Part shown: positions 8,148 to 28,094 of the stretch, in pieces
Numbering within the stretch: position 1 is the stretch's first letter
Layout: each line of letters begins with the position of its first letter
Virus genome (UHGV): UHGV-1682877
Length of the DNA: 64,000 nucleotides
Direction: 5' to 3' (one strand)
Source of the DNA: a virus
Position numbers and translations under genes: made by a program
Notes under the pieces: model-generated
Seen by the model: only the letters and a program-made list of their open reading frames with translations
The model's database searches: none
What the model was told of the DNA's origin: nothing

Positions 8148-9821
8148 ATGGAAGATTTTATGAACAAATTAAATCTTACTAAAGATGAAGATTTATTAGA
8201 TTTTTATTTTCAAACTTACGGCGATGATGAAGCTATGCCAGCAAGAAATTATCTTAAATTTTGGCATGAAGCTAAAAGTGAATACTTGCTTCCTCTTTTC
8301 AAGAATCAGCTTATTTACAAGAAAGAAATCAGTTTTGATGTAGATACTGAAATTCTTATTTCAAGAATTCACAGACTTTTTATTAAAGATAATAAAAATT
8401 CTAATATCTATTACAAACTTAAAAATAGATTATTTGAAATTGTTGATAATTTATTTCCTAATGTAAGTAAAGATATTCGTATAAACAAAGATGTTTCTTG
8501 TGATTCATACCTCTGGGTAAGTTCTTGTTTAAATTTTCGCACTCTAGCTTTGAATAGAACTGCAACTACTTTTCAATATAATAATTTTAAAATCCCGCAA
8601 GGTACAAAAGTTTTTAAAGCTTTTAAATCTTTTGTTAATTTTGCATTGAAAAATAAACTTATTGAACAAATTGAGTATGATGAAATAAATGATTTTATTG
8701 AATATTTGCGGATTCAACATTCTCAAGTATTTAACCAAAAAAAGATTTCCGGCAATTTATGTATCTCAATTCATCCTATGGATTATATTACCATGAGTGA
8801 TAATGGTAATAATTGGGAATCTTGTATGCGCTGGGGCGATGGCGGAGGAGATTATAAAGTAGGTACTTTGGAAATGCTTAATTCTCCTTCTGTTGTAGTT
8901 TGTTATCTTGAAAGCAAAAAACCTTGGAATATCAATGATGATTATTCCTGGAATAATAAGAAATGGCGGGAATTATTTATTGTTGATAAAAATTTTATTT
9001 GTGGTATCAAAGGTTATCCATATCCTAGTGTTTATTTGGAGACTATGTGCGCTAATTGGTTAGCAGATTTAGTTGAAGAATATTATCACAATAAGTTTGA
9101 TAGAACTAATTTCCGCTATGATAAAAAAATTACATTTGAAACTATTCTAATGTATAATGATATTAATGCAAATGGAGAATGTTTTTTATACTACTCAGAG
9201 GATGCTATTGAAGCAGATGAAGAAATTGAATTTAATTACAGTGGATATGCAAGATGTTTGAGATGCGGTGAAATTATTTCTGAAGATTGGACAGATTCAG
9301 ATACTTTATCTAGTATGTTTCTTTGTCCTAATTGCGCAGGTTTGATATTTTGTGCAGATTGTGGCGATTTAATTAATCCAGAAGATTATGGCGTTGAACA
9401 CAATGGAAACTGGTATTGTGAAGAATGTATGTTAGATCATGGCTTCTTCTGTAGTGAGTGTGATGAATTTCATTGGAATGATGAAGATGAAAACACCGCA
9501 ATTTATGTTGCGTACAAAGATAAAAATTCTGAACAAGTAGAATTAAGAATACTTAATTATTTATGCTCTGATTGTATTAATGAAAATCTTGAATATGGAA
9601 ATATTGTTGAAGTAGAATATGAAGGCAAAAAATATTATGTTGCCACTGTTGATTTTATTACTTCAGAATATATTAGTCAAGTTTCTCGCTATGGCGATAA
9701 AGATGGACATAAAATGATTTCTACCTTTGCTTTTTACCATGATTTAACTCTTAATAAAACAATCTTGTACAATCCTGAATACTTTATCAATAAGGAGTAT
9801 TTAAATGAAGAAAATGACTAA
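8148..9821 (+). CDS. large hypothetical protein with C-terminal CxxC zinc-ribbon clusters (paralog of 11928..13232)
   Basis: 557-aa ORF; AAAGGAG SD; at least four CxxC pairs in the C-terminal third; shared blocks with 11928 ORF. Confidence 0.7.
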   Translation: MEDFMNKLNLTKDEDLLDFYFQTYGDDEAMPARNYLKFWHEAKSEYLLPLFKNQLIYKKEISFDVDTEILISRIHRLFIKDNKNSNIYYKLKNRLFEIVDNLFPNVSKDIRINKDVSCDSYLWVSSCLNFRTLALNRTATTFQYNNFKIPQGTKVFKAFKSFVNFALKNKLIEQIEYDEINDFIEYLRIQHSQVFNQKKISGNLCISIHPMDYITMSDNGNNWESCMRWGDGGGDYKVGTLEMLNSPSVVVCYLESKKPWNINDDYSWNNKKWRELFIVDKNFICGIKGYPYPSVYLETMCANWLADLVEEYYHNKFDRTNFRYDKKITFETILMYNDINANGECFLYYSEDAIEADEEIEFNYSGYARCLRCGEIISEDWTDSDTLSSMFLCPNCAGLIFCADCGDLINPEDYGVEHNGNWYCEECMLDHGFFCSECDEFHWNDEDENTAIYVAYKDKNSEQVELRILNYLCSDCINENLEYGNIVEVEYEGKKYYVATVDFITSEYISQVSRYGDKDGHKMISTFAFYHDLTLNKTILYNPEYFINKEYLNEEND

Positions 9822-10182
9822 AAAAGATTATTATAAAAAAATTCTCCAACATTTTGGAGATAATTGCCCAGAATCAGAAATGATTAGAAATTTCCTTGAA
9901 AATGAAATTATGTTGCTTGATAGAAAAACAGAGTCTGCAAAGTTAAAAGCTATTGAAGCAAAAGAAAAAGGTGATGAATTGCGCGAACAGATTTATGACA
10001 TTTTGCCCAGCTGCGAGGAAAATCCCATCCCTGTTTCTAAAATAAAAGAAATTTTAAATAATGATTTAATTACTTCTCAAAAAATTTCTGCACGTTTAAC
10101 TCAGTTATTTAAATTAAACAAAATTGAGAAACAAGAAATTTCTTTTGAAGGTCAGAAAAAGACTGGATATAGAAAAATTTAA
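9805..10182 (+). CDS. hypothetical protein
   Basis: 125-aa ORF; TAAGGAG SD. Confidence 0.55.
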   Translation: MKKMTKKDYYKKILQHFGDNCPESEMIRNFLENEIMLLDRKTESAKLKAIEAKEKGDELREQIYDILPSCEENPIPVSKIKEILNNDLITSQKISARLTQLFKLNKIEKQEISFEGQKKTGYRKI

Positions 10183-10190
10183 GAAGATAA

Positions 10191-10218
10191 AGAGGAGAAT
10201 TTTTTCTCCTCTTTTTTA
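10191..10218 (+). terminator. rho-independent terminator (agaggagaa / ctcctct + T-run)
   Basis: Read directly. Confidence 0.7.
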
Positions 10219-10280
10219 TTACCATAATTATAATAACATATTTTTTGCTAAAAATAAAGTTTGAAACTTTTAGCTTGGCT

Positions 10281-10328
10281 TAGGTCGGGGCGGAGACGTG
10301 CGAATAAAAATAGCTTTAACAAATTTTT
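10281..10328 (+). promoter_or_regulatory. conserved GC-rich 45-nt motif, copy A (ggtcggggcggagacgtgcgaataaaaatagctttaacaaatttttt)
   Basis: One of three near-identical copies (with 17754 and 52119) of a GC-rich block in an AT-rich genome. Confidence 0.6.
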
Positions 10329-10350
10329 TAAAGGATAAAGGAGAATAACA

Positions 10351-11127
10351 ATGTTATATAGTTTAAATACAAGACTAAAAAAATTAATGCCAGATGAAAT
10401 CAAATGTCAAATAAATAGATTAGGAGACATTTTTGATTTAATTAAAGAAAATCCAGACATTAGATGTAATATTCAATACACTAATATGGGCGAATTATCT
10501 GAAAAAAAACTGGATGAACAAATTGATTTCATTAAAGAAGTGGCAAAAGATTATACAATAGCTGTAATTAATTTCCAAGATTTGCGGAAATTAAAAGCAA
10601 AAGGCTATAATGTATATTTAGATTTGCCGGTTTCAGATTGGGAAACTTTTAATAATTTAAAAAATATTGGCGTTTCAGATATTTACATTGACGGAGCTTT
10701 AGGATTCCAAATGGAGAAAATTGGAAAAGCAAAAGGAAAAATAAAGATTAGGGTTACTCCGCATATGTCGCCAAATGCGCAATGGTCATCTTCAGATAAT
10801 GAAAATTCTTTTTATATTCGACCAGAAGATATAGATAATTATTCTAAATATGTAGATATTTTAGACTTTAGAGATAACAGCAAAGATGCAGAAGAAACTT
10901 TATTCAATATTTATAAAAGGAAGATTTTTCCTTTTGATTTAAATAATTTAATTAGACAACTGAATTTACCAACTAATAATATTTATATTGCAAATAGTTT
11001 TTGTTCAAACAGATTGAATTGCGGGCAAAGATGTCAGGAGCCTGATATTTCTTGTCATTTATGTAGAAATGCAATTTTAATTTCTAATAAAATGAATGAA
11101 TATATTAGTTTAACGGAAAAAAATTGA
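10351..11127 (+). CDS. hypothetical protein
   Basis: 258-aa ORF; AAAGGAGAA SD; Cys cluster near C-terminus. Confidence 0.6.
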   Translation: MLYSLNTRLKKLMPDEIKCQINRLGDIFDLIKENPDIRCNIQYTNMGELSEKKLDEQIDFIKEVAKDYTIAVINFQDLRKLKAKGYNVYLDLPVSDWETFNNLKNIGVSDIYIDGALGFQMEKIGKAKGKIKIRVTPHMSPNAQWSSSDNENSFYIRPEDIDNYSKYVDILDFRDNSKDAEETLFNIYKRKIFPFDLNNLIRQLNLPTNNIYIANSFCSNRLNCGQRCQEPDISCHLCRNAILISNKMNEYISLTEKN

Positions 11128-11177
11128 TTTTCTTTAAAAAATATAATATAATATTTATATAATAAAAGAAATAATAA

Positions 11178-11214
11178 GTTTTATAAAACTCACCAAAGGT
11201 GAGTTTTATAAAAC
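11178..11214. promoter_or_regulatory. long perfect palindrome (agttttataaaactcacc aaa ggtgagttttataaaac); bidirectional terminator or operator
   Basis: Core is repeated at 37386-37420. Confidence 0.5.
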
Positions 11215-11236
11215 AAATAAGAAAGATGGGGATGAT

Positions 11237-11962
11237 ATGAAACTAAATAATTATGATTATAGATTTTTAAAAAAGTTGTTACAGTCTACACAGCATGAAC
11301 TATTAGAATTTTTACCCAAAGCGCTTAATGCCATTTACCATAAAGAAGATATTATTATTACCAATAATTATATTTGCGCTAAAGGTGATATCCCAGTAGC
11401 TTTAGTTGCTCATTTAGATACCGTATATCCAGAACCACCTAAACAGATTTTTCATGATCCAGAATATAATATTATTTGGGGAACAAATGGTTTGGGTGCA
11501 GATGATAGAGCAGGCGTTTTTGCTATTTTAAATATTTTAGAATGTGGCTATAAGCCTACTGTAATTTTTTGTTGCGATGAAGAAAATGGCGGTTTAGGTG
11601 CTTATCAACTGACTAAAGATTTTTCAAAACCTTTCACCAATTTTGAAATGCTTATTGAGCTAGACCGCCAAGGAACAAAAGATGCAGTATATTATTCATT
11701 AAATAACACTGATTTTGAAAATTATATCAATAATTATGGATTTGAAACTGCGGTAGGTGTATTCACAGATATTTGTATTCTAGGCCCAATTTGGGATGTT
11801 CCCGCAGTTAATCTTTCTGTTGGTTATTTTAATGAACATAGTTATGCGGAAATGCTTTATTACCCAGCTTTATTTGATACTATTGATAAGGTTTGTTTAA
11901 TTTTAGAAGAAAAGAGGACAAAAGACTTTGAATTTACAGAAATCACTGGAAGCAGCAATTAA
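11237..11962 (+). CDS. Zn-dependent peptidase-like protein (M20/M28/M42-type motifs)
   Basis: AHLDTV and GADDRAGV resemble the metal-ligand motifs of co-catalytic zinc aminopeptidases; only 241 aa, so possibly a truncated or non-catalytic homolog. Confidence 0.45.
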   Translation: MKLNNYDYRFLKKLLQSTQHELLEFLPKALNAIYHKEDIIITNNYICAKGDIPVALVAHLDTVYPEPPKQIFHDPEYNIIWGTNGLGADDRAGVFAILNILECGYKPTVIFCCDEENGGLGAYQLTKDFSKPFTNFEMLIELDRQGTKDAVYYSLNNTDFENYINNYGFETAVGVFTDICILGPIWDVPAVNLSVGYFNEHSYAEMLYYPALFDTIDKVCLILEEKRTKDFEFTEITGSSN

Positions 11963-13232
11963 ATATTCTCAAAATTATTCTTTTCCTCTTGATTGTGAAG
12001 AAATAATTACTTCTTGGGAAATTAATAAAGCTAAATTGAACAAAGAATATTTGAACGAAAAAATTACTTTACAATTAACTGATGAACCAGTATCTATTAC
12101 TCTTGATGAAACTTTTAGAAGAGATAGTTTTTTTGAATTTATTGATAAAGTTATGAATTTGTTGGAACCATCTGAAGATGCTCCAGATAGTGAAATAGAA
12201 CTATATTACCATTTTTATGATTTTCTTAGTGATAATGTAAATAATTTTTATTCTAATATTGTTACTTCAGATTTTTTAAATATTGTAAAACGTGGAAGTA
12301 AAATTATTAAATCTTTTAAATATTTTGTTAAAGATAAACAAAAGCTCAGAAAAATCCAGGATATGGCAAGTGAATTAATTCAAACACAAAAAATTTCTGG
12401 ATATTTATTTGCTTCTATTGATCCATTTGAATTTTTAACTTCTAGTGAGAATAATTGCAATTGGCGTTCTTGTCATTCATTAGATGGAGATTATCGTGCG
12501 GGAAATATTAGCTATATGAATGATCAATCTACTATTATTGTATTTTTAGCAAATGAAGAAAAAATCAATGTAGACTGTTTACCAAAATCTATCAAAGTCT
12601 ATAATAAAAAATGGAGAATGTTAATTCATATAAATCAAAATGATAATATAATTTATTATGGAAGGCAATATCCTTCTTATAATAAAAATTTATTAGATTT
12701 AGTTTATAGTAAATTATTTTGTGATAAAGGTTTTATGCCTCCTAAAAAGGTTACTTTTGACCAAATTAATTTAAATCAGGATAATTGTATTGATTTAGAC
12801 CACAATTATATGGCATTAAATAACAAAGTTTTTGATACTTTAGAGTTAATTGATATTCCAGAAAATTCGTTAAATTATAATGATATTGTATATTCTTCAT
12901 TCTACCAAACGCAAGTCAGTATTAATAGAGAATATAAATATTATTATAGTAAAGATAAGCAAAAGACAATAGATTTATTTTTAACTAAAGTTGGTTATCC
13001 TGTTGCTTGCGCTTGCGGATGTGGCAGAAAAGTAAGTAATTCGGCAAGCTTTATTTGTGATACTTGTGCAGAAAAATATAATGCTGAAGGAAATTTATAT
13101 CCAATTTGCTCTTGTTGTGGACAAAGAATAAATTTAAAAGATAAACAGAGTTATAAACAAGAAGAAGAAGGTCTTTATTGTAGTCTTTGTTGGCGAGGAA
13201 TTAAGTCACTTGAACGTCAATTGAATTTTTAA
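11928..13232 (+). CDS. hypothetical protein with C-terminal CxxC clusters (paralog of 8148..9821)
   Basis: 434-aa ORF; TTG start in track; conserved NW(E/R)SC block and KKWR block shared with 8148 ORF. Confidence 0.6.
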   Translation: MNLQKSLEAAIKYSQNYSFPLDCEEIITSWEINKAKLNKEYLNEKITLQLTDEPVSITLDETFRRDSFFEFIDKVMNLLEPSEDAPDSEIELYYHFYDFLSDNVNNFYSNIVTSDFLNIVKRGSKIIKSFKYFVKDKQKLRKIQDMASELIQTQKISGYLFASIDPFEFLTSSENNCNWRSCHSLDGDYRAGNISYMNDQSTIIVFLANEEKINVDCLPKSIKVYNKKWRMLIHINQNDNIIYYGRQYPSYNKNLLDLVYSKLFCDKGFMPPKKVTFDQINLNQDNCIDLDHNYMALNNKVFDTLELIDIPENSLNYNDIVYSSFYQTQVSINREYKYYYSKDKQKTIDLFLTKVGYPVACACGCGRKVSNSASFICDTCAEKYNAEGNLYPICSCCGQRINLKDKQSYKQEEEGLYCSLCWRGIKSLERQLNF

Positions 13233-13279: not shown

Positions 13280-13738
13280 ATGACTGTAAAAGAGCATGAA
13301 GTAAAAGTTTTTAAATGGCATTATACTTTGGTTAAAAGTTCAGCCATTTTTTATTTAAAAGATTTTATTAATCAAAATGTTTCAGATATTGATTATTATA
13401 TTGCTGATAATAATGAAAGTAATAAAATTATTTTGAATATTAACGGAGTAGAGTATCGTCTTTTAATTAATGATTATCTTCTTTATGACCCTTATTATAA
13501 TACTTTTGTCATATTAGAAAAATCTCCAGAATCTCTTTTTAAAGAATATGAAAAAGATTATGTTATTAAATTTTTAGATAATTATATTGGTAAAAATTTT
13601 CATGATATAAATACTATTTTTAGTTGTGCAAAACATTTTTCTTCTAAAGAAGAAGCTGAAAAAGTAGTAGATTTTTTAGTTGATAATTTTAATAGTAGCA
13701 GAGCTTGTTTTGAAATTATTGACTTAAATGAGGAATAA
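13280..13738 (+). CDS. hypothetical protein (intact paralog of 13741..14036)
   Basis: 152-aa ORF; SD AAGAAAGGA. Confidence 0.6.
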   Translation: MTVKEHEVKVFKWHYTLVKSSAIFYLKDFINQNVSDIDYYIADNNESNKIILNINGVEYRLLINDYLLYDPYYNTFVILEKSPESLFKEYEKDYVIKFLDNYIGKNFHDINTIFSCAKHFSSKEEAEKVVDFLVDNFNSSRACFEIIDLNEE

Positions 13739-13740
13739 TT

Positions 13741-14036
13741 ATGGATAATATTATTGAACGAAAAGTTAAAATATTTTGTTGGCATTTTATTATTGATAAA
13801 AAAATGGCTATTTCTTGTTTAGAAGATTTTTGAATAATATTAATGATATTTCTTTTTATATTTTTACAAGCACTCATAATGATGTTATTCATTTTAAAAT
13901 TAATGAAAAAGAATATGTTCTTTTAATGGGAGATTATTTGGTTTATGATTCTTATTATGAGAATTTTGCTATATTTCATAAACTTCCAAAATATATTCGT
14001 AAAATACAACAAATTGAAAATTTAAAAAATAAATGA
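13741..14036 (+). pseudogene. frameshifted paralog of 13280..13738 (ATG 13741 reads 30 codons to TGA 13831-13833; homology continues in -1 frame as ORF 13815..14036)
   Basis: Both reading frames align with consecutive segments of the upstream paralog; shift lies on a T5 run. Confidence 0.5.
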
Positions 14037-14078: not shown

Positions 14079-14387
14079 ATGGCTAGACGCGGTGACAAAG
14101 CAAGAGAACAGGTAATGCAGAAGATTGTTGATGTTTTTGGTGATGATTTCTGCTGTATTGATAATAAGAAGATTTATGTGAATGGTCACGAAGGTGGCGA
14201 AACTATTCAATTTGCTATTAGTTTGACAATGCCAAAGACACCTGTTACTGGTGGTTCTACTAATCGAAATATTACCACTGGTAATCCAAATGATTGGACT
14301 GAGAAGGAAGTTAAGACTGCGGAAATTAGTGATGAAGACGCTGAGACAATCAAAAGATTAAAGGAAACTCTGGGTATTGTTGATTAA
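14079..14387 (+). CDS. hypothetical protein
   Basis: 102-aa ORF; SD AAGAAAGGA; elevated GC codon choice. Confidence 0.6.
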   Translation: MARRGDKAREQVMQKIVDVFGDDFCCIDNKKIYVNGHEGGETIQFAISLTMPKTPVTGGSTNRNITTGNPNDWTEKEVKTAEISDEDAETIKRLKETLGIVD

Positions 14388-14648: not shown

Positions 14649-14724
14649 AGTGTTGTAGCTCAGTAGGTTAGAGCCAGCGACTTATAATCGCTAGACGTGG
14701 GTTCAAATCCCAACAGCACTACCA
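14649..14724 (+). tRNA. tRNA with anticodon TAT (Ile-type, reads AUA); CCA encoded
   Basis: Hand-folded cloverleaf: acceptor agtgttg/cagcact, D-stem gctc/gagc, anticodon stem agcga/tcgct with loop cTTATAa, T-loop ttcaaat. Confidence 0.7.
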
Positions 14725-14955
14725 TTAATAATTTAAATGTAATAAAAGTTTGATGTATACAAATGTTGCGTCATTTGAATCCCTCCCTTTGCTACAATCA
14801 ACGTTTGATTTACATTTGGAAAAAGTGATAGAAAATCACATGGAATTACTTTTAGCCAACCGAGTATCAATGTTATTAACTAAAACTTTTTCACTTTTAT
14901 ATTAACTTTTAAATTATATCTTTTAGTTTGCGGTCTAAATTGTAAAACCGCATAT

Positions 14956-15033
14956 GGCACTGTAGCCCAATCGGAAGCAGGCAGTAGACTTAAAATCTAT
15001 TCAGTGTGGGTTCGAGTCCCATCAGTGCTACCA
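14956..15033 (+). tRNA. atypical tRNA: anticodon TAA (Leu-type) but short variable loop; CCA encoded
   Basis: Acceptor ggcactg/cagtgct, anticodon stem gtaga/tctat with loop cTTAAAa, T-arm gtgggttcgagtcccat identical to Leu(TAA) at 25100; identity uncertain. Confidence 0.55.
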
Positions 15034-15179
15034 TCACAGATTGTTGTGCGATTTAACTGTGTTAAATAAATTAAAATCGCGTTGCACAGTTCTTCCTTTA
15101 AGGAGTAGTTATGTTATATAATGAATGAACTAAAAAATTAATACTATGTTAGAATTGTATTAATTATTAAAAATTTTGG

Positions 15180-15215
15180 TTGACTTTAATTAATAAATAT
15201 GTTATAATATTTATA
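15180..15215 (+). promoter_or_regulatory. sigma70-like promoter (-35 TTGACT 15180-15185, -10 TATAAT 15203-15208)
   Basis: Consensus -35 with 17-bp spacing. Confidence 0.65.
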
Positions 15216-15234
15216 TAAGATTAACCAAAGAAAT

Positions 15235-15316
15235 GTTGGATTGATGGAATGGTAGACATAGTAGCCTTAGAAGCTACCGCGTAAGCGTAAGAGTTCAAGT
15301 CTCTTATCCAACACCA
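15235..15316 (+). tRNA. tRNA-Leu (anticodon TAG), type II with long variable arm; CCA encoded
   Basis: Acceptor gttggat/atccaac, D-loop gaatggtaga, anticodon loop cTTAGAa, variable arm cgcgtaagcgt, T-arm aagagttcaagtctctt. Confidence 0.8.
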
Positions 15317-15340
15317 TTAGACAGACACAGCAATCTTTAT

Positions 15341-15410
15341 ACAAGTAACGACATGCAGGTTCGATTCCTGTCTTTACGCATCTGTAAAGTAGCCTATTGG
15401 TAAGGTATTT
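15341..15410 (+). ncRNA. tRNA-like element without canonical cloverleaf (T-arm gcaggttcgattcctgt, then closed hairpin ctttac/gtaaag, then D-loop-like tattggtaa)
   Basis: T-arm consensus present but no acceptor or anticodon pairing could be found; same architecture as the element at 26395-26520. Confidence 0.3.
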
Positions 15411-15442
15411 ATTTTGTTTAAAGCTGTCTAGTAAATCTCAAT

Positions 15443-15485
15443 TTGAAAAATAAAAAAAATTATGATATAATATTTATAGAAAGTT
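15443..15485 (+). promoter_or_regulatory. sigma70-like promoter (-35 TTGAAA 15443-15448, extended -10 TGATATAAT) with leader
   Basis: 17-bp spacing. Confidence 0.6.
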
Positions 15486-15497
15486 GAGGTTGATTTA

Positions 15498-15623
15498 ATG
15501 TTTTATTGGGATTCCTTTGATTGTGAAATTCAGTCTGATGAAATTGGTAGTATTACTAATCAGGAGAATGAATATGAAGAAACAGAAGAACAAGAATTTA
15601 TGGGCGAAAAAGAGTGGCGATGA
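15498..15623 (+). CDS. hypothetical small acidic protein (41 aa; weak)
   Basis: ATG 8 nt after GAGGT SD that follows the promoter; competes with the Lys-rich track ORF 15517..15726. Confidence 0.35.
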   Translation: MFYWDSFDCEIQSDEIGSITNQENEYEETEEQEFMGEKEWR

Positions 15624-15711
15624 ACTTCAAGAGTATTTGCAATTTCGCCGCAGAGGTAGTAAAGTAAAACCTAAAAAGGGCAAAGGTTCCTTTAAAAGAA
15701 AAAAGAAATTT

Positions 15712-15788
15712 GGATCCATAGCGTAATTGGTTAGCGCAACGGACTGTTAATCCGTGGGTTGTTCGTTCAAGTCGAACTGGATCCGCCA
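15712..15788 (+). tRNA. tRNA-Asn (anticodon GTT); CCA encoded
   Basis: Acceptor ggatcca/tggatcc, anticodon stem acgga/tccgt with loop cTGTTAa, T-arm gttcgttcaagtcgaac. Confidence 0.85.
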
Positions 15789-15801
15789 TATATTTTAATT
15801 A

Positions 15802-15877
15802 GCTCCTATCGACAAGTTGGTTAAGTCGCTAGCCCTTCAAGCTAGAGTCGCGGGATCGTAGCCCGCTAGGAGTACCA
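15802..15877 (+). tRNA. tRNA-Glu-like (anticodon TTC), non-canonical T-loop; CCA encoded
   Basis: Acceptor gctccta/taggagt, anticodon stem ctagc/gctag with loop ccTTCaa, T-arm gcggg-atcgtag-cccgc. Confidence 0.55.
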
Positions 15878-15956
15878 TAATGAAAGACACATACAGCAAT
15901 TTATTTAATATTATAAAAAATGGCAGAAAATTTTTATACAAGTGTCTTGTTTATAT

Positions 15957-16013
15957 ATTGCAGGCAGGTTAAAGCCCTGTGCGTCGCTGGTTCAAATCCA
16001 GCCTGTGATACCA
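15957..16013 (+). ncRNA. tRNA-like mini-element (T-arm gctggttcaaatccagc plus short hairpin; no D-arm found)
   Basis: T-arm consensus and terminal CCA seen, but no full cloverleaf could be built. Confidence 0.25.
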
Positions 16014-16014
16014 T

Positions 16015-16087
16015 TGCGGAGTAGAGAAACGGTTATCTCGCAACCCTCATAAGGTTGAGAAAGGTGGTTCGACTCCATCCTCTCGCA
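16015..16087 (+). tRNA. tRNA with anticodon CAT (Met or lysidine-Ile2 type)
   Basis: D-stem gaga/tctc, anticodon stem caacc/ggttg with loop cTCATaa, T-arm ggtggttcgactccatc; acceptor pairing imperfect, so ends are approximate. Confidence 0.6.
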
Positions 16088-16209
16088 GAGACATAATCAA
16101 CCACCTCCACGCGGTATGTCTTGGGTAAAGCGAACGGTTGAATGATTTTGGGTACATTTGGATAATTTAGTAGCCAAAAAAACTCCATAATATAATGGAG
16201 GGATGTATA

Positions 16210-25099: not shown

Positions 25100-25185
25100 G
25101 TGGGCGTGATGAAATAGGAAAACATATCGCACTTAAAATGCGCTGCTAATCTAGCTTGTGGGTTCGAGTCCCATCGCCCACACCA
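25100..25185 (+). tRNA. tRNA-Leu (anticodon TAA), type II; CCA encoded
   Basis: Acceptor gtgggcg/cgcccac, anticodon loop cTTAAAa, variable-arm hairpin gcta-atc-tagc, T-arm gtgggttcgagtcccat. Confidence 0.7.
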
Positions 25186-25250
25186 TCTTTAAAACTGATA
25201 CTCTTTACTATTAGTTTTAAAGATAACAATGAACTTGAGTTTACTGATAT

Positions 25251-25327
25251 GCGTCTGTAACTCAACTGGATAGAGTAACTGCCTTCTAAGCAGTAAGCCA
25301 GGGGTTCGAGTCCCTTCAGGCGTACCA
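25251..25327 (+). tRNA. tRNA-Arg (anticodon TCT); CCA encoded
   Basis: Acceptor gcgtctg/caggcgt, D-stem actc/gagt, anticodon stem actgc/gcagt with loop cTTCTAa, T-arm aggggttcgagtccctt. Confidence 0.8.
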
Positions 25328-25329
25328 AG

Positions 25330-25512
25330 CAGAACTATAATAGGCAACAAAAGGAAATAGCTGATGTGAAAGGCATCTTGTCTTGCTGACATGACAATAA
25401 ACTTTGAACGGGCGTATAATGCGTATCGTGCCTGCGGGTGTAGAGTCAGAAAAGTAGGGGAATAATTGAGGAGCAGCTATAGGTGAGGCCCCACCTCCAC
25501 CTTCCTTAATAT
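25330..25512 (+). ncRNA. GC-enriched non-coding segment between tRNA-Arg and tRNA-Ser; candidate structured RNA of unknown class
   Basis: No + strand ORF with SD; several GC-rich hairpins such as aggtgagg-cccc-acctccacc. Confidence 0.3.
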
Positions 25513-25604
25513 GGGGCAATGGCAGAGTTTGGCTTATTGCACTTGTCTTGAAAACAAGCAAACTAGCAATAGTTTCACTGGTTCAAATCCAGTTTGCCCC
25601 GCCA
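25513..25604 (+). tRNA. tRNA-Ser (anticodon TGA), type II; CCA encoded
   Basis: Acceptor ggggcaa/ttgcccc, anticodon stem cttgt/acaag with loop cTTGAAa, long variable arm, T-arm actggttcaaatccagt. Confidence 0.8.
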
Positions 25605-25608
25605 ATAA

Positions 25609-25682
25609 GCAGGTATAGTTTAATGATAGAACTCTGGACTTCCACTCCAGCGATGCGGGTTTGATTCCCGTTACTTGCTCCA
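25609..25682 (+). tRNA. tRNA-Gly (anticodon TCC); CCA encoded
   Basis: Acceptor gcaggta/tacttgc, anticodon stem ctgga/tccag with loop cTTCCAc, T-arm gcgggtttgattcccgt. Confidence 0.8.
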
Positions 25683-25745
25683 TAAAGATACTCACAGCAA
25701 TTTATTTTTTATAATGGGTATAAAAAAATAAAGTATCTTGTATTT

Positions 25746-25821
25746 GCTAACGTGGCGCAACAGGTAGCGCAGCGGCCTTGTAAACCGCAGGTTAAGAGTT
25801 CAAGTCTCTTCGTTAGCTCCA
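25746..25821 (+). tRNA. tRNA-Thr (anticodon TGT); CCA encoded
   Basis: Acceptor gctaacg/cgttagc, anticodon stem gcggc/accgc with loop cTTGTAa, T-arm aagagttcaagtctctt. Confidence 0.85.
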
Positions 25822-25823
25822 AT

Positions 25824-25899
25824 GGTTCGCTAGTTCATTAGGTAGAACACTTGCCTTTTAAGCAAGATGTGCTGGGTTCAAATCCCAGGCGAGCCACCA
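25824..25899 (+). tRNA. tRNA-Lys (anticodon TTT); CCA encoded
   Basis: Acceptor ggttcgc/gcgagcc, D-stem gttc/gaac, anticodon stem cttgc/gcaag with loop cTTTTAa, T-arm ctgggttcaaatcccag. Confidence 0.85.
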
Positions 25900-26274
25900 T
25901 TAGTCTTATCATACAGACGTAAAATAAATGAGTACCCCAGATAATGCTGAACTGGGTATCCGGGTATCGGGAGAATTAGTCTGGCAACTGTTGAAGCGAC
26001 GATACTGCGTGACCAGGCATAAGGGCGACCTAAGTCGTTAGCTATGGGTAAACAGGTTGATAGCCGCATAGTAAAATGTTTCCTTGCGTCATTAAAATGC
26101 AAGGCGTTATAGGAGAGACGGCGGAGCATTACTCATCTCCACTCCTTCTGCTACGAGAAGTAGAAAATCAAGGCTTCTGAGAAATGCTAATGAGAATGGT
26201 CAACCTCTGATTAAAAAAGGACTAAAGCTAGCTTAGGTTTTAGGTTATCCTCCTTACGAGGGAAAACCTTATTT
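25900..26274 (+). ncRNA. approximately 375-nt GC-enriched non-coding segment between tRNA-Lys and tRNA-Leu(CAA); candidate structured RNA of unknown class
   Basis: No credible + strand ORF; GC content visibly above surroundings; not tmRNA-like and lacks RNase P P4 motifs by eye. Confidence 0.3.
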
Positions 26275-26358
26275 GCCAGAATGTTGGAATTGGTAGACAA
26301 AGAAGTCTCAAAAACTTTCGCTTTATGCGTGCGGGTTCGAATCCCGCTTCTGGTACCA
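26275..26358 (+). tRNA. tRNA-Leu (anticodon CAA), type II; CCA encoded
   Basis: Acceptor gccagaa/ttctggt, D-loop gaattggtaga, anticodon stem gaagt/acttt with loop cTCAAAa, variable arm cgctttatgcgtg, T-arm gcgggttcgaatcccgc. Confidence 0.8.
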
Positions 26359-26570: not shown

Positions 26571-28094
26571 ATGGAAAATAAGATGCTTAATATTTTGAAG
26601 GAAAAGAATACTCATTCTATCACTGAGAACGGCGGTTTGACTTATAATTCTACTATGAATGGAATTATGGATTTGTTTGCTCTTGGTGGTGCTTATCGAA
26701 ATCGCTCAGATGATGATTGTATTTTTCTTTTTAAGAAGGCTTTTGAGGAAGATATTTCTTATGCTTTGAAGTGTCTCTTTTATTTGCGAGACGTACGCGG
26801 TGGACAGGGAGAACGCAGATTTTTTAAGGTCGTAACTTCTTGGTTGGCAGTTAATCACACCGAGGAAATGCGTAGAAATCTGAAGTATGTTCCTGAGTAT
26901 GGTCGCTGGGATGATTTGTATGCTTTTGTTGATACTCCGCTTGAGGCAGATGCTTTTAAGACTATGTATCATCAGCTTGCTCTTGATGTTCAGTGTAAAA
27001 CTCCTTCTCTTTTGGCTAAGTGGTTGAAGTCTGAAAATACTTCTTCTGCAGAATCTCGTATGCTTGGAGCTAAAACCAGAATGGCTTTTAATATGTCTCC
27101 TAAGCAGTATCGCAAGATTCTCTCTATTCTTCGTGAAAGAATTAGAGTTTTGGAAAGACTGATGAGTGAAAACCGTTGGGATGAAATTGAATTTGATAAG
27201 ATTCCTTCTAAGGCAGGTCTAAAGTATCGCAATGCTTTTGCAAAGCACGATATTGAAAGAGAAAAGTCTAATAAGGTAACTTATGAAGAGTTTGTAAAGG
27301 ATTCTAATACTAAGGTCAATGCTGATACTTTGAATCCCGCAGATGTAGTTCATGCTGTTGTTTCTAAATTTCCCTATTATAGAGGAAATTTTAATGGAAC
27401 TGATGTGGAGAGAGCTGCACTCAATAAGTATTGGGATAATCTAAAGGATTATTTTAATAATGCTGTTTTTGACGGTGTTGCTGTCGTTGATACTTCTGGT
27501 TCTATGTGTGGTTTTTATGGTAGTGAGAAAACTATTGCACCTATTGATGTAGCTATTTCTCTTGGTATGTATTGTGCTGAGAAGTGTAATCCCAATTCTC
27601 CCTGGTATGGACATTATATTACTTTTTCCCGAACTGCAAGATTGGTACCTGTTGAAGGTATTGATTTTGTTGATAAGGTGCGTAGAATTTATCAAAAGAA
27701 TCTTTGTGAGAATACCAACATTAAAAGTATTTTTGATTTGCTATTGAGCAATGCTATTAAATATAATATTCCTAATGAAGAAATGCCTAAAAACATTGTA
27801 ATCATTAGTGATATGGAATTTGATTATTGCGCTGGTTACTATAATAGTGATGAATACAAGTCTGAAATGGAAAAGATTATGCAAGTTTGGAACTCTCATG
27901 GTTACACTACTCCACATTTGATTTTCTGGAATGTTGACGCTCGAAATGATAATATTCCCATGAAGATGAAGGATGGTATTACTTTTATTTCTGGTTATTC
28001 TGCGGTAACTTATGAAATGTTGATGACTGGTAAAACTGGTTTTGATTTGGTTTTGGAAAAGTTGAACAATAAGAGATATGAGGTAATCAAGTAA
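26571..28094 (+). CDS. vWA-domain protein with Ro60/Rsr-like (TROVE + vWA) architecture
   Basis: 507 aa; MIDAS-type VVDTSGSM about 300 aa from N-terminus; N-terminal ENGGLTY ... LGGAYR resembles TROVE start; AAAAGGAGAA SD. Confidence 0.5.
   Translation: MENKMLNILKEKNTHSITENGGLTYNSTMNGIMDLFALGGAYRNRSDDDCIFLFKKAFEEDISYALKCLFYLRDVRGGQGERRFFKVVTSWLAVNHTEEMRRNLKYVPEYGRWDDLYAFVDTPLEADAFKTMYHQLALDVQCKTPSLLAKWLKSENTSSAESRMLGAKTRMAFNMSPKQYRKILSILRERIRVLERLMSENRWDEIEFDKIPSKAGLKYRNAFAKHDIEREKSNKVTYEEFVKDSNTKVNADTLNPADVVHAVVSKFPYYRGNFNGTDVERAALNKYWDNLKDYFNNAVFDGVAVVDTSGSMCGFYGSEKTIAPIDVAISLGMYCAEKCNPNSPWYGHYITFSRTARLVPVEGIDFVDKVRRIYQKNLCENTNIKSIFDLLLSNAIKYNIPNEEMPKNIVIISDMEFDYCAGYYNSDEYKSEMEKIMQVWNSHGYTTPHLIFWNVDARNDNIPMKMKDGITFISGYSAVTYEMLMTGKTGFDLVLEKLNNKRYEVIK

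Follow-up and report, generated by a model that had tools for sequence, protein, structure and literature searches.

A conserved phage gene cassette with two GNAT-like, zinc-tailed paralogs around an M28-like metallopeptidase

A paralog pair at the ends of a five-gene cassette

The 64,000-nt stretch of UHGV virus genome UHGV-1682877 that was analysed here (the window) carries on its plus strand two open reading frames (ORFs), ORF A (8148..9821; 557 aa, ATG start) and ORF B (11928..13232; 434 aa, TTG start), which form the ends of a cassette of five genes in the order A, P125, P258, M28 metallopeptidase and B. An earlier reading of the DNA letters alone (the sequence-only reading) had singled out these two ORFs as large paralogous proteins that end in zinc ribbons. 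Its coordinates proved exact, and the paralogy was borne out by two comparisons. BLASTP aligned residues 149-427 of A with residues 120-421 of B at 26% identity (E=2e-18), and a hidden Markov model (HMM) made from B-type proteins only, i.e., from the subfamily of ORF B, scored ORF A with E=1.4e-33. An HMM search of the window revealed no third family member beyond A and B. Among the blocks that had been described as shared, NW(E/R)SC and KKWR(E/M)L are common to both proteins, whereas HPxD occurs in A only (as IHPMD); B reads IDPFE at this site, where the family has H, D or R.

ORF A is composed of a helical N-terminal part (residues 1-149), a GNAT-like alpha/beta core (residues 150-366, nt 8595-9245) and a Cys-rich tail (residues 367-480, nt 9246-9587), followed by a disordered C-terminus. 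The tail contains six CxxC pairs (C370/373, 393/396, 402/405, 424/427, 435/438 and 473/476) that make up three predicted zinc sites. In ORF B the core spans residues ~121-355, and the zinc tail (residues 356-434) contains a CxCxC knuckle (C361/363/365) and three CxxC pairs (377/380, 394/397 and 418/421). The count of four to five CxxC pairs in the sequence-only reading therefore has to be corrected for both proteins.

The three genes between A and B lie on the same strand. P125 (9805..10182; 125 aa) overlaps the end of A by 17 nt at its start and contains a Lys/Ala-rich linker; its C-terminal half weakly resembles winged-helix regulators, with profile matches in the PDB at E-values of 0.0035-0.0044. 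P258 (10351..11127; 258 aa) is marked by an R-P-x-D motif that is invariant and by a C-x3-C-x6-C-x2-C cluster at its C-terminus; no PDB or Pfam match emerged for its family, even when a profile or 18 members were used. The fourth gene (11237..11962; 241 aa) encodes an M28-family (clan MH) metallopeptidase-like protein, which passes the Pfam M28 cut-off (25.0 bits, cut-off 21.3). Its metal-binding and catalytic motifs (H-x-D, DD, EE, D and H) are all intact and are conserved in five homologs. Homologs of this peptidase elsewhere are 320-360 aa in length, and the long ones carry a Cys tail like that of A and B. ORF B begins, with TTG, while still within the peptidase gene, 35 nt before the 3' end of the latter, and AAGAGGA precedes this start codon.

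Conservation of the cassette

We surveyed 79 IMG/VR loci using HMMs of the cassette components; 68 of these loci had enough downstream sequence to be informative. The genes A-P125-P258-M28-B were contiguous and in this order in 59 of the 68, the other nine being minor variants, and contigs of metagenome-assembled genomes (MAGs) repeated the same five-gene order. The main new finding of our analysis is this genomic context, in which the paralog pair is widened to a conserved cassette.

All loci that carry the cassette come from related phage contigs of 90-200 kb, and other neighbours of the cassette are syntenic as well (66-69 loci). In addition, the peptidase occurs without the A/B family nearby in P087, P23-45, phiKMV-like podophages and Tsamsa-like phages. 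The five-gene block could accordingly be no more than the inherited gene order of one phage clade, with A, B and the peptidase acting independently, but we consider this quite unlikely. The block persists while A drops to 31-36% and B to 30-40% identity, and the flanks vary more than the block itself. The stop of the peptidase gene overlaps the start of B not only in the window but also in four other loci (L003, L005, L006 and L007). Furthermore, the adjacency of the family and the peptidase recurs, in a rearranged form, in Enterococcus phages, and Cys tails are common to A, B and the long peptidases.

A large family without curated annotation

An exhaustive HMMER search using a core-only profile revealed a family of 3,800 clusters at 50% identity (E<=1e-3), 1,866 of which reach E<=1e-30. 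A word-indexed search returned >190 homologs for A and >130 for B, all of them unannotated and many on contigs of 100-180 kb. The sequence-only reading had been unable to place the pair in a known family, and our database searches agree with it. Pfam, NCBIfam and PADLOC hold no model for the core, and neither these three nor PHROGs gave a match to it with A or B. When 84 members were scanned individually against Pfam, no match to the core was found and weak zinc-ribbon/LIM matches were confined to the tails. The PADLOC HMMs for anti-phage defence gave no match at E<=1 to A, B, P258 or the M28 peptidase, and a search of the published literature found no description of the A/B family. A link was found to phrog_18912, which has no annotated function and is matched by 62 of the 84 members (best E=8e-21). 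A and B themselves did not match phrog_18912 in PHROGs at E<=0.1, so their tie to it is at the level of the family, the two proteins apparently being too divergent to match directly.

The A-type members have a median size of 542 aa and the B-type members of 452 aa. Judged by these comparisons, A-type and B-type are separate, anciently diverged subfamilies of one large family. A recent tandem duplication of A and B was ruled out, because each type has hundreds of orthologs; the pair in the window is thus an old one, and the duplication that had been proposed stands as paralogy but not as a local event. Genomes carry two to three copies of the family, and contig L001 is among those with three tandem A-type copies.

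In the GTDB species-representative set, all 38 family matches were in MAGs, most of them of gut Bacillota and often on contigs of 150-176 kb, and none was in a named isolate genome. A prophage or bacterial origin of the family was rejected on this basis. The restriction of the genome matches to MAGs fits a family of virulent phages.

Related paralogs and peptidases in other phages

A tblastn search of 50,697 GenBank phages found nothing with either A or P0015 as the query; only P0292, a more central B-type protein, reached Enterococcus phages. The Enterococcus phages H1, EF1, EF5 and VRE9_1-4 (134-142 kb) contain three A/B-family paralogs around an M28-like peptidase. In H1 these paralogs are gp1 (623 aa), gp5 (399 aa) and gp7 (335 aa), which belong to phrog_18912 and are annotated as hypothetical. 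They share the core with the A/B family, with profile E-values from 4e-15 to 7e-32, and retain the S..P.D, W.[ST]C, G.Y..G, K.[WY]R, YP and ND motifs, and the H1 peptidase is 44% identical to that of the window. The gene order in H1 differs from that of the cassette (gp1, three small genes, gp5, peptidase, gp7), gp5 has no zinc tail, unlike A and B, and no homolog of P258 or P125 was detected in the Enterococcus phages.

Relatives of the peptidase are labelled "peptidase" in many phages. The uncultured megaphages LR745206, LR756503 and LR756504 (634-735 kb) each contain two or three copies of M28-like peptidases, and the peptidase family therefore extends to very large phages.

Predicted fold and conserved residues of the core

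The structure of ORF A was modelled with AlphaFold2 from an alignment of 31 sequences. The model is confident (pLDDT 83.6, pTM 0.71) and consists of three parts: helices at residues ~1-195, an alpha/beta domain at ~199-363, and a zinc-ribbon region at 367-500 that is followed by a disordered tail. For an AlphaFold model of the core only, DSSP assigned strands (E) and helices (H) at E55-58, H61-65, H87-95, E100-106, E122-130, E134-141, H146-164, E179-182, H189-192 and E198-201. This predicted structure has exactly the GNAT order beta1-alpha1-alpha2-beta2-beta3-beta4-alpha3-beta5-alpha4-beta6. The core is thus predicted to be GNAT-like in fold, and we refer to it in this way, without filing it as a member of the GNAT superfamily, because the CoA-binding motif is absent. 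A structural search that had been proposed along with the sequence-only reading was run with Foldseek on BFVD and retrieved uncharacterised phage proteins only. The two best matches have the same lengths as gp1 and gp7 of H1 and are likely to be their orthologs.

Residues S207, P210, D212, W223, C226, Y236, G239, K272, R274, Y290-P291 and N337-D338 (numbered as in A) are kept in A-type, B-type and Enterococcus paralogs. Within the N-terminal domain, K43, N136 and K154 are conserved in the metagenomic A-type and B-type members. The residues conserved across the subfamilies are largely polar and map to elements of the GNAT cleft, i.e., the beta1-alpha1 region, the alpha1-alpha2 loop, beta3, the end of beta4 and the beta5-alpha4 junction, suggesting an active site or a ligand-binding pocket. 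An HxD-type metal or oxygenase site was also considered and was rejected, because the His is swapped for D or R in some members.

GNAT-fold effectors of phages have precedents in Rac and Mom (PMC7552054, PMC7824862). With such a core, A and B might be nucleic-acid modifiers that acylate DNA bases (like Mom of phage Mu), tRNA or aminoacyl-tRNA (like TmcA and the TacT/AtaT-type GNATs), in which case other genes of the cassette would supply or trim the donor. Besides the fold and the precedents set by Mom and other DNA-modifying phage GNATs (PMC7824862), this idea is consistent with the block of 17 tRNA genes that the cassette adjoins in the window, with the winged-helix-like protein inside the cassette, and with the conservation of K271-K272-x-R274 on beta3. 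We nevertheless regard it as unlikely, since acidity, seen here in the full-length proteins as well as in the zinc tails, is unusual in enzymes that grip nucleic acids, and the Pfam scans of the 84 members revealed no similarity to the Mom or TmcA families. We also know of no role for an aminopeptidase in nucleic-acid-acylation pathways.

Acidic zinc tails

The tail of A has a net charge of -20 and a pI of 4.05, and the median charge of the tails across the family is -20 for the A-type and -12 for the B-type. The whole proteins have median net charges of -33 (A-type) and -19 (B-type); the core of ORF B is neutral to basic. Such acidity of proteins and tails throughout the family argues against direct binding to nucleic acids, and the acidic tails favour protein docking or nucleic-acid mimicry. 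A search using the tail profile of the family revealed similarity with the LIM domains of CRP1 and CRP2 (E=1e-7 to 4e-7). LIM domains are protein-protein modules.

These results bear on the proposal of the sequence-only reading that the zinc ribbons bind nucleic acid directly and that the proteins are regulators or effectors of this kind. The large number of CxxC zinc ribbons and the weak zinc-ribbon/DZR matches in 12 of the 84 members would suit it. However, the strongly acidic tails and the LIM domains as the best profile matches speak against it, the alpha/beta core and not the zinc tail is the most conserved part, and some paralogs, e.g., H1_5, have no zinc tail at all. We therefore consider direct binding by the ribbons highly improbable.

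Upstream of the cassette, a stop-to-stop frame of 79 aa (5696-5932) contains a small stand-alone zinc-ribbon ORF with weak similarity to the Cys tails of the A/B family (E=8e-5) and to many zinc-ribbon models of Pfam.

The same acidity, kept throughout the family, is compatible with A and B being non-catalytic binders or inhibitors, in which the GNAT-like core would be a pseudo-enzyme scaffold. Their targets would be basic host proteins, for example DNA- or RNA-binding proteins, RNA polymerase, nucleoid proteins or restriction/defence nucleases, and they would serve as host-takeover or anti-defence factors, partly through nucleic-acid mimicry. The anti-defence role that the sequence-only reading had also suggested is neither backed nor contradicted by our results. 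The LIM-like tails as protein-interaction modules, the absence of the GNAT CoA-binding motif, the early-looking region, and the two to three paralogs per genome, an expansion typical of conflict genes, all agree with this possibility. On the other hand, subfamilies that are only 20-25% identical have about a dozen invariant polar residues in common, a pattern more in keeping with an active or ligand-binding site than with a binding surface that co-evolves with host targets, and the core of B is neutral to basic. The tight linkage to an apparently active metallopeptidase would also suggest chemistry. Binding without catalysis is thus a possible, though doubtful, explanation.

Expression signals, flanking genes and genome setting

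The promoter-like site with the best consensus match in the region (8086..8114, plus strand) is located 34 nt 5' of ORF A. It is sigma-70-like, with TTGACC, a 17-nt spacer and a TG-extended TATAAT, matching the consensus at 11 of 12 positions, and its -35 element overlaps a hairpin at 8063-8091. A candidate ribosome-binding site, AAAGGAG, is found 8 nt ahead of the ATG of ORF A. Directly 3' of P125, a terminator-like hairpin (10189..10214, plus strand) has an 11-bp stem followed by a T-run, which suggests a single transcription unit comprising ORF A and P125. Transcription of the cassette is probably early and carried out by the host RNA polymerase; we infer this timing from the matches to promoter and ribosome-binding-site consensus sequences. 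The assignment to an early region in the sequence-only reading is in line with these signals and with the small ORFs around the cassette.

A perfect palindrome with a 17-bp stem (11178-11214), which may be an operator or an internal terminator, lies between the P258 and peptidase genes. Two promoter-like sites at 11124-11163 adjoin it.

Two families flank the cassette in most loci. A 102-aa protein of the window (14079..14387, plus strand) belongs to a family that is found just 3' of B in 69 of the 79 loci, and a 152-aa protein (5942..6400, plus strand) belongs to one that lies upstream of the cassette in 66 of the 79, where its members are usually ~250 aa. The flanking syntenic families F107, F248 and F432 had no Pfam matches. 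A family of ~430 aa is located directly upstream of A in 46 of the 79 loci (e.g., 7012-8367 in L010, and 6971-8095 in L001, where it has 374 aa) and is absent from the window; it has an FNFDFGPC...YGLAVKN block and a Met-rich hydrophobic C-terminus, and no Pfam match. Just 3' of B, the ORFs at 13280-13738 (152 aa) and 13815-14036 (73 aa) are paralogs of each other (BLASTP E=7e-13, 41% identity) with the common motif IN..EY.LL..DYL.YD.YY..F.I. In relatives of the window, Mtd_N genes are found a few kb 3' of the cassette (L005 12460-14526; L007 10030-10404 and 13454-16050). The major tropism determinant, of which Mtd_N forms the N-terminal domain, is the protein targeted by diversity-generating retroelements.

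With a GC content of 23-38%, the window is AT-rich, and nearly all of its long ORFs are on the plus strand. It encodes topoisomerase II subunits, a DnaB-like helicase, a RecJ-like exonuclease, the anaerobic ribonucleotide reductase NrdD and a radical-SAM protein, and it contains 17 tRNA genes in two clusters (14649-17659 and 25100-26358). The closest relatives of the RecJ-like protein, at ~37% identity, are those of SPbeta-like and other large Bacillota phages. A megablast search of the region against the same 50,697 GenBank phages found no match at the DNA level. Taken together, the gene content, the tRNA genes, the RecJ-like relatives and the lack of a GenBank DNA match indicate that the window comes from a large phage that is uncultured and whose host is an anaerobic member of the Firmicutes.

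In one of the ARAGORN calls (16876-16948) the anticodon consists of four bases (tgaa) and no amino acid is assigned; this call may be an unusual tRNA or an artefact. The second tRNA cluster is flanked by the radical-SAM protein (phrog_1802; 22630-23889) and a 507-aa phrog_850 "RNA-binding protein" (26571-28094). These two genes may form a module for RNA modification or repair that has no connection with A and B.

Among the relatives, the homolog of P258 in L006 (6196-6981) and the homolog of B in L007 (8001-9398) contain in-frame TAG codons, which are read as Gln in database proteins. This suggests TAG-to-Gln recoding in some relatives of the window phage. In the window itself, the 44 long plus-strand ORFs end in TAA (38) or TGA (six) and none in TAG, and a suppressor was not found in its set of 17 tRNAs.

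A possible protein- or peptide-modifying module

We tentatively prefer the explanation that the two GNAT-like paralogs and the metallopeptidase of this early cassette cooperate in acting on a target that is a protein or a peptide, and that the acidic zinc tails have a docking role; we consider it possible, and short of an even chance. The cores of A and B would be catalytic or substrate-binding units, acyl- or aminoacyl-transferase-like, that work with a metallo-aminopeptidase or deacylase on a protein or peptide in the infected cell. The acidic zinc tails would dock A and B onto this target or onto each other. On this basis the cassette is most likely an early-expressed protein- or peptide-modifying module and, more generally, an unknown host-manipulating system that is probably enzymatic.

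Several observations weigh against this explanation. The pyrophosphate-binding motif for CoA at beta4-alpha3, Q/R-x-x-G-x-G/A, is absent, and the family has [KR]-[GQ]-Y-P-[YFS] instead; the site reads GIKGYPY in the A-type and GRQYPF in the B-type, with Y-P alone invariant and no conserved G-x-G/A. Pfam scans of A, B and the 84 members revealed no acetyltransferase or Fem family at E<=1, and the core profile had no match among PDB sequences. The evidence for the fold consists of predicted structures, none of them solved, and within the model the invariant W-x-S-C loop has a low confidence (pLDDT 57-62). His209, though nearly invariant, is replaced by D in B and by R in H1 gp1, which indicates that it is not essential. 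Finally, a conserved gene order in related phages can be general collinearity and not shared function.

A more specific version, which we find improbable, is a phage protein-editing pathway. Here, a protein or peptide of the host or of the phage would first be trimmed by the peptidase or deacylase, and the two Cys-containing GNAT-fold enzymes would re-acylate or aminoacylate it, possibly using the phage's own tRNAs, with P258 and P125 as accessory or targeting subunits. The result would be an N-terminal re-tagging (N-degron-like) or a peptide modification for cell takeover by large gut Firmicutes phages.

With 3,800 clusters, two to three copies per genome and no curated annotation, the A/B family is among the larger pieces of phage "dark matter", and its setting is a conserved cassette in the early region of gut Firmicutes (Bacillota) phages of 90-200 kb. 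The GNAT-like fold, the candidate catalytic residues, the M28 partner and the homologs in cultured Enterococcus phages make a testable hypothesis out of what was an anonymous pair of ORFs. If A and B are enzymes, the takeover strategies of phages would gain a new type of modification, of host proteins or of metabolites; if they are binders, they would represent a new class of acidic zinc-finger inhibitors.

Comparison with known systems

For the core, the GNAT superfamily, including Rac (LUZ19 gp28), Mom of phage Mu and the Fem/aminoacyl-tRNA transferases, is among the closest known systems. For the tails, the nearest likeness is with LIM domains. A has two consecutive fingers, C370-x2-C373-x19-C393-x2-C396 and C402-x2-C405-x18-C424-x2-C427, whose eight Cys and intra-finger spacers agree with the eight ligands and the 16-23 residue spacers of LIM. 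The tails differ from LIM domains in the linker between the fingers, which has 5 residues in A and 13 in B compared with the canonical 2, in having Cys as all ligands, in the third ribbon of A and of many B-types, and in their prokaryotic-viral context. The LIM model of Pfam was matched weakly by eight of the 84 members (best E 0.0047) and the double zinc ribbon (DZR_2) by 12, in both cases below the gathering threshold.

The clan MH metallopeptidases and deacylases (M28, M20 and M42) of phage early regions resemble the cassette neighbour, and not A or B themselves. To our knowledge, no phage clan MH metallopeptidase or deacylase has a known substrate. The peptidase of the cassette lies between two GNAT-like paralogs, and it often carries their type of Cys tail.

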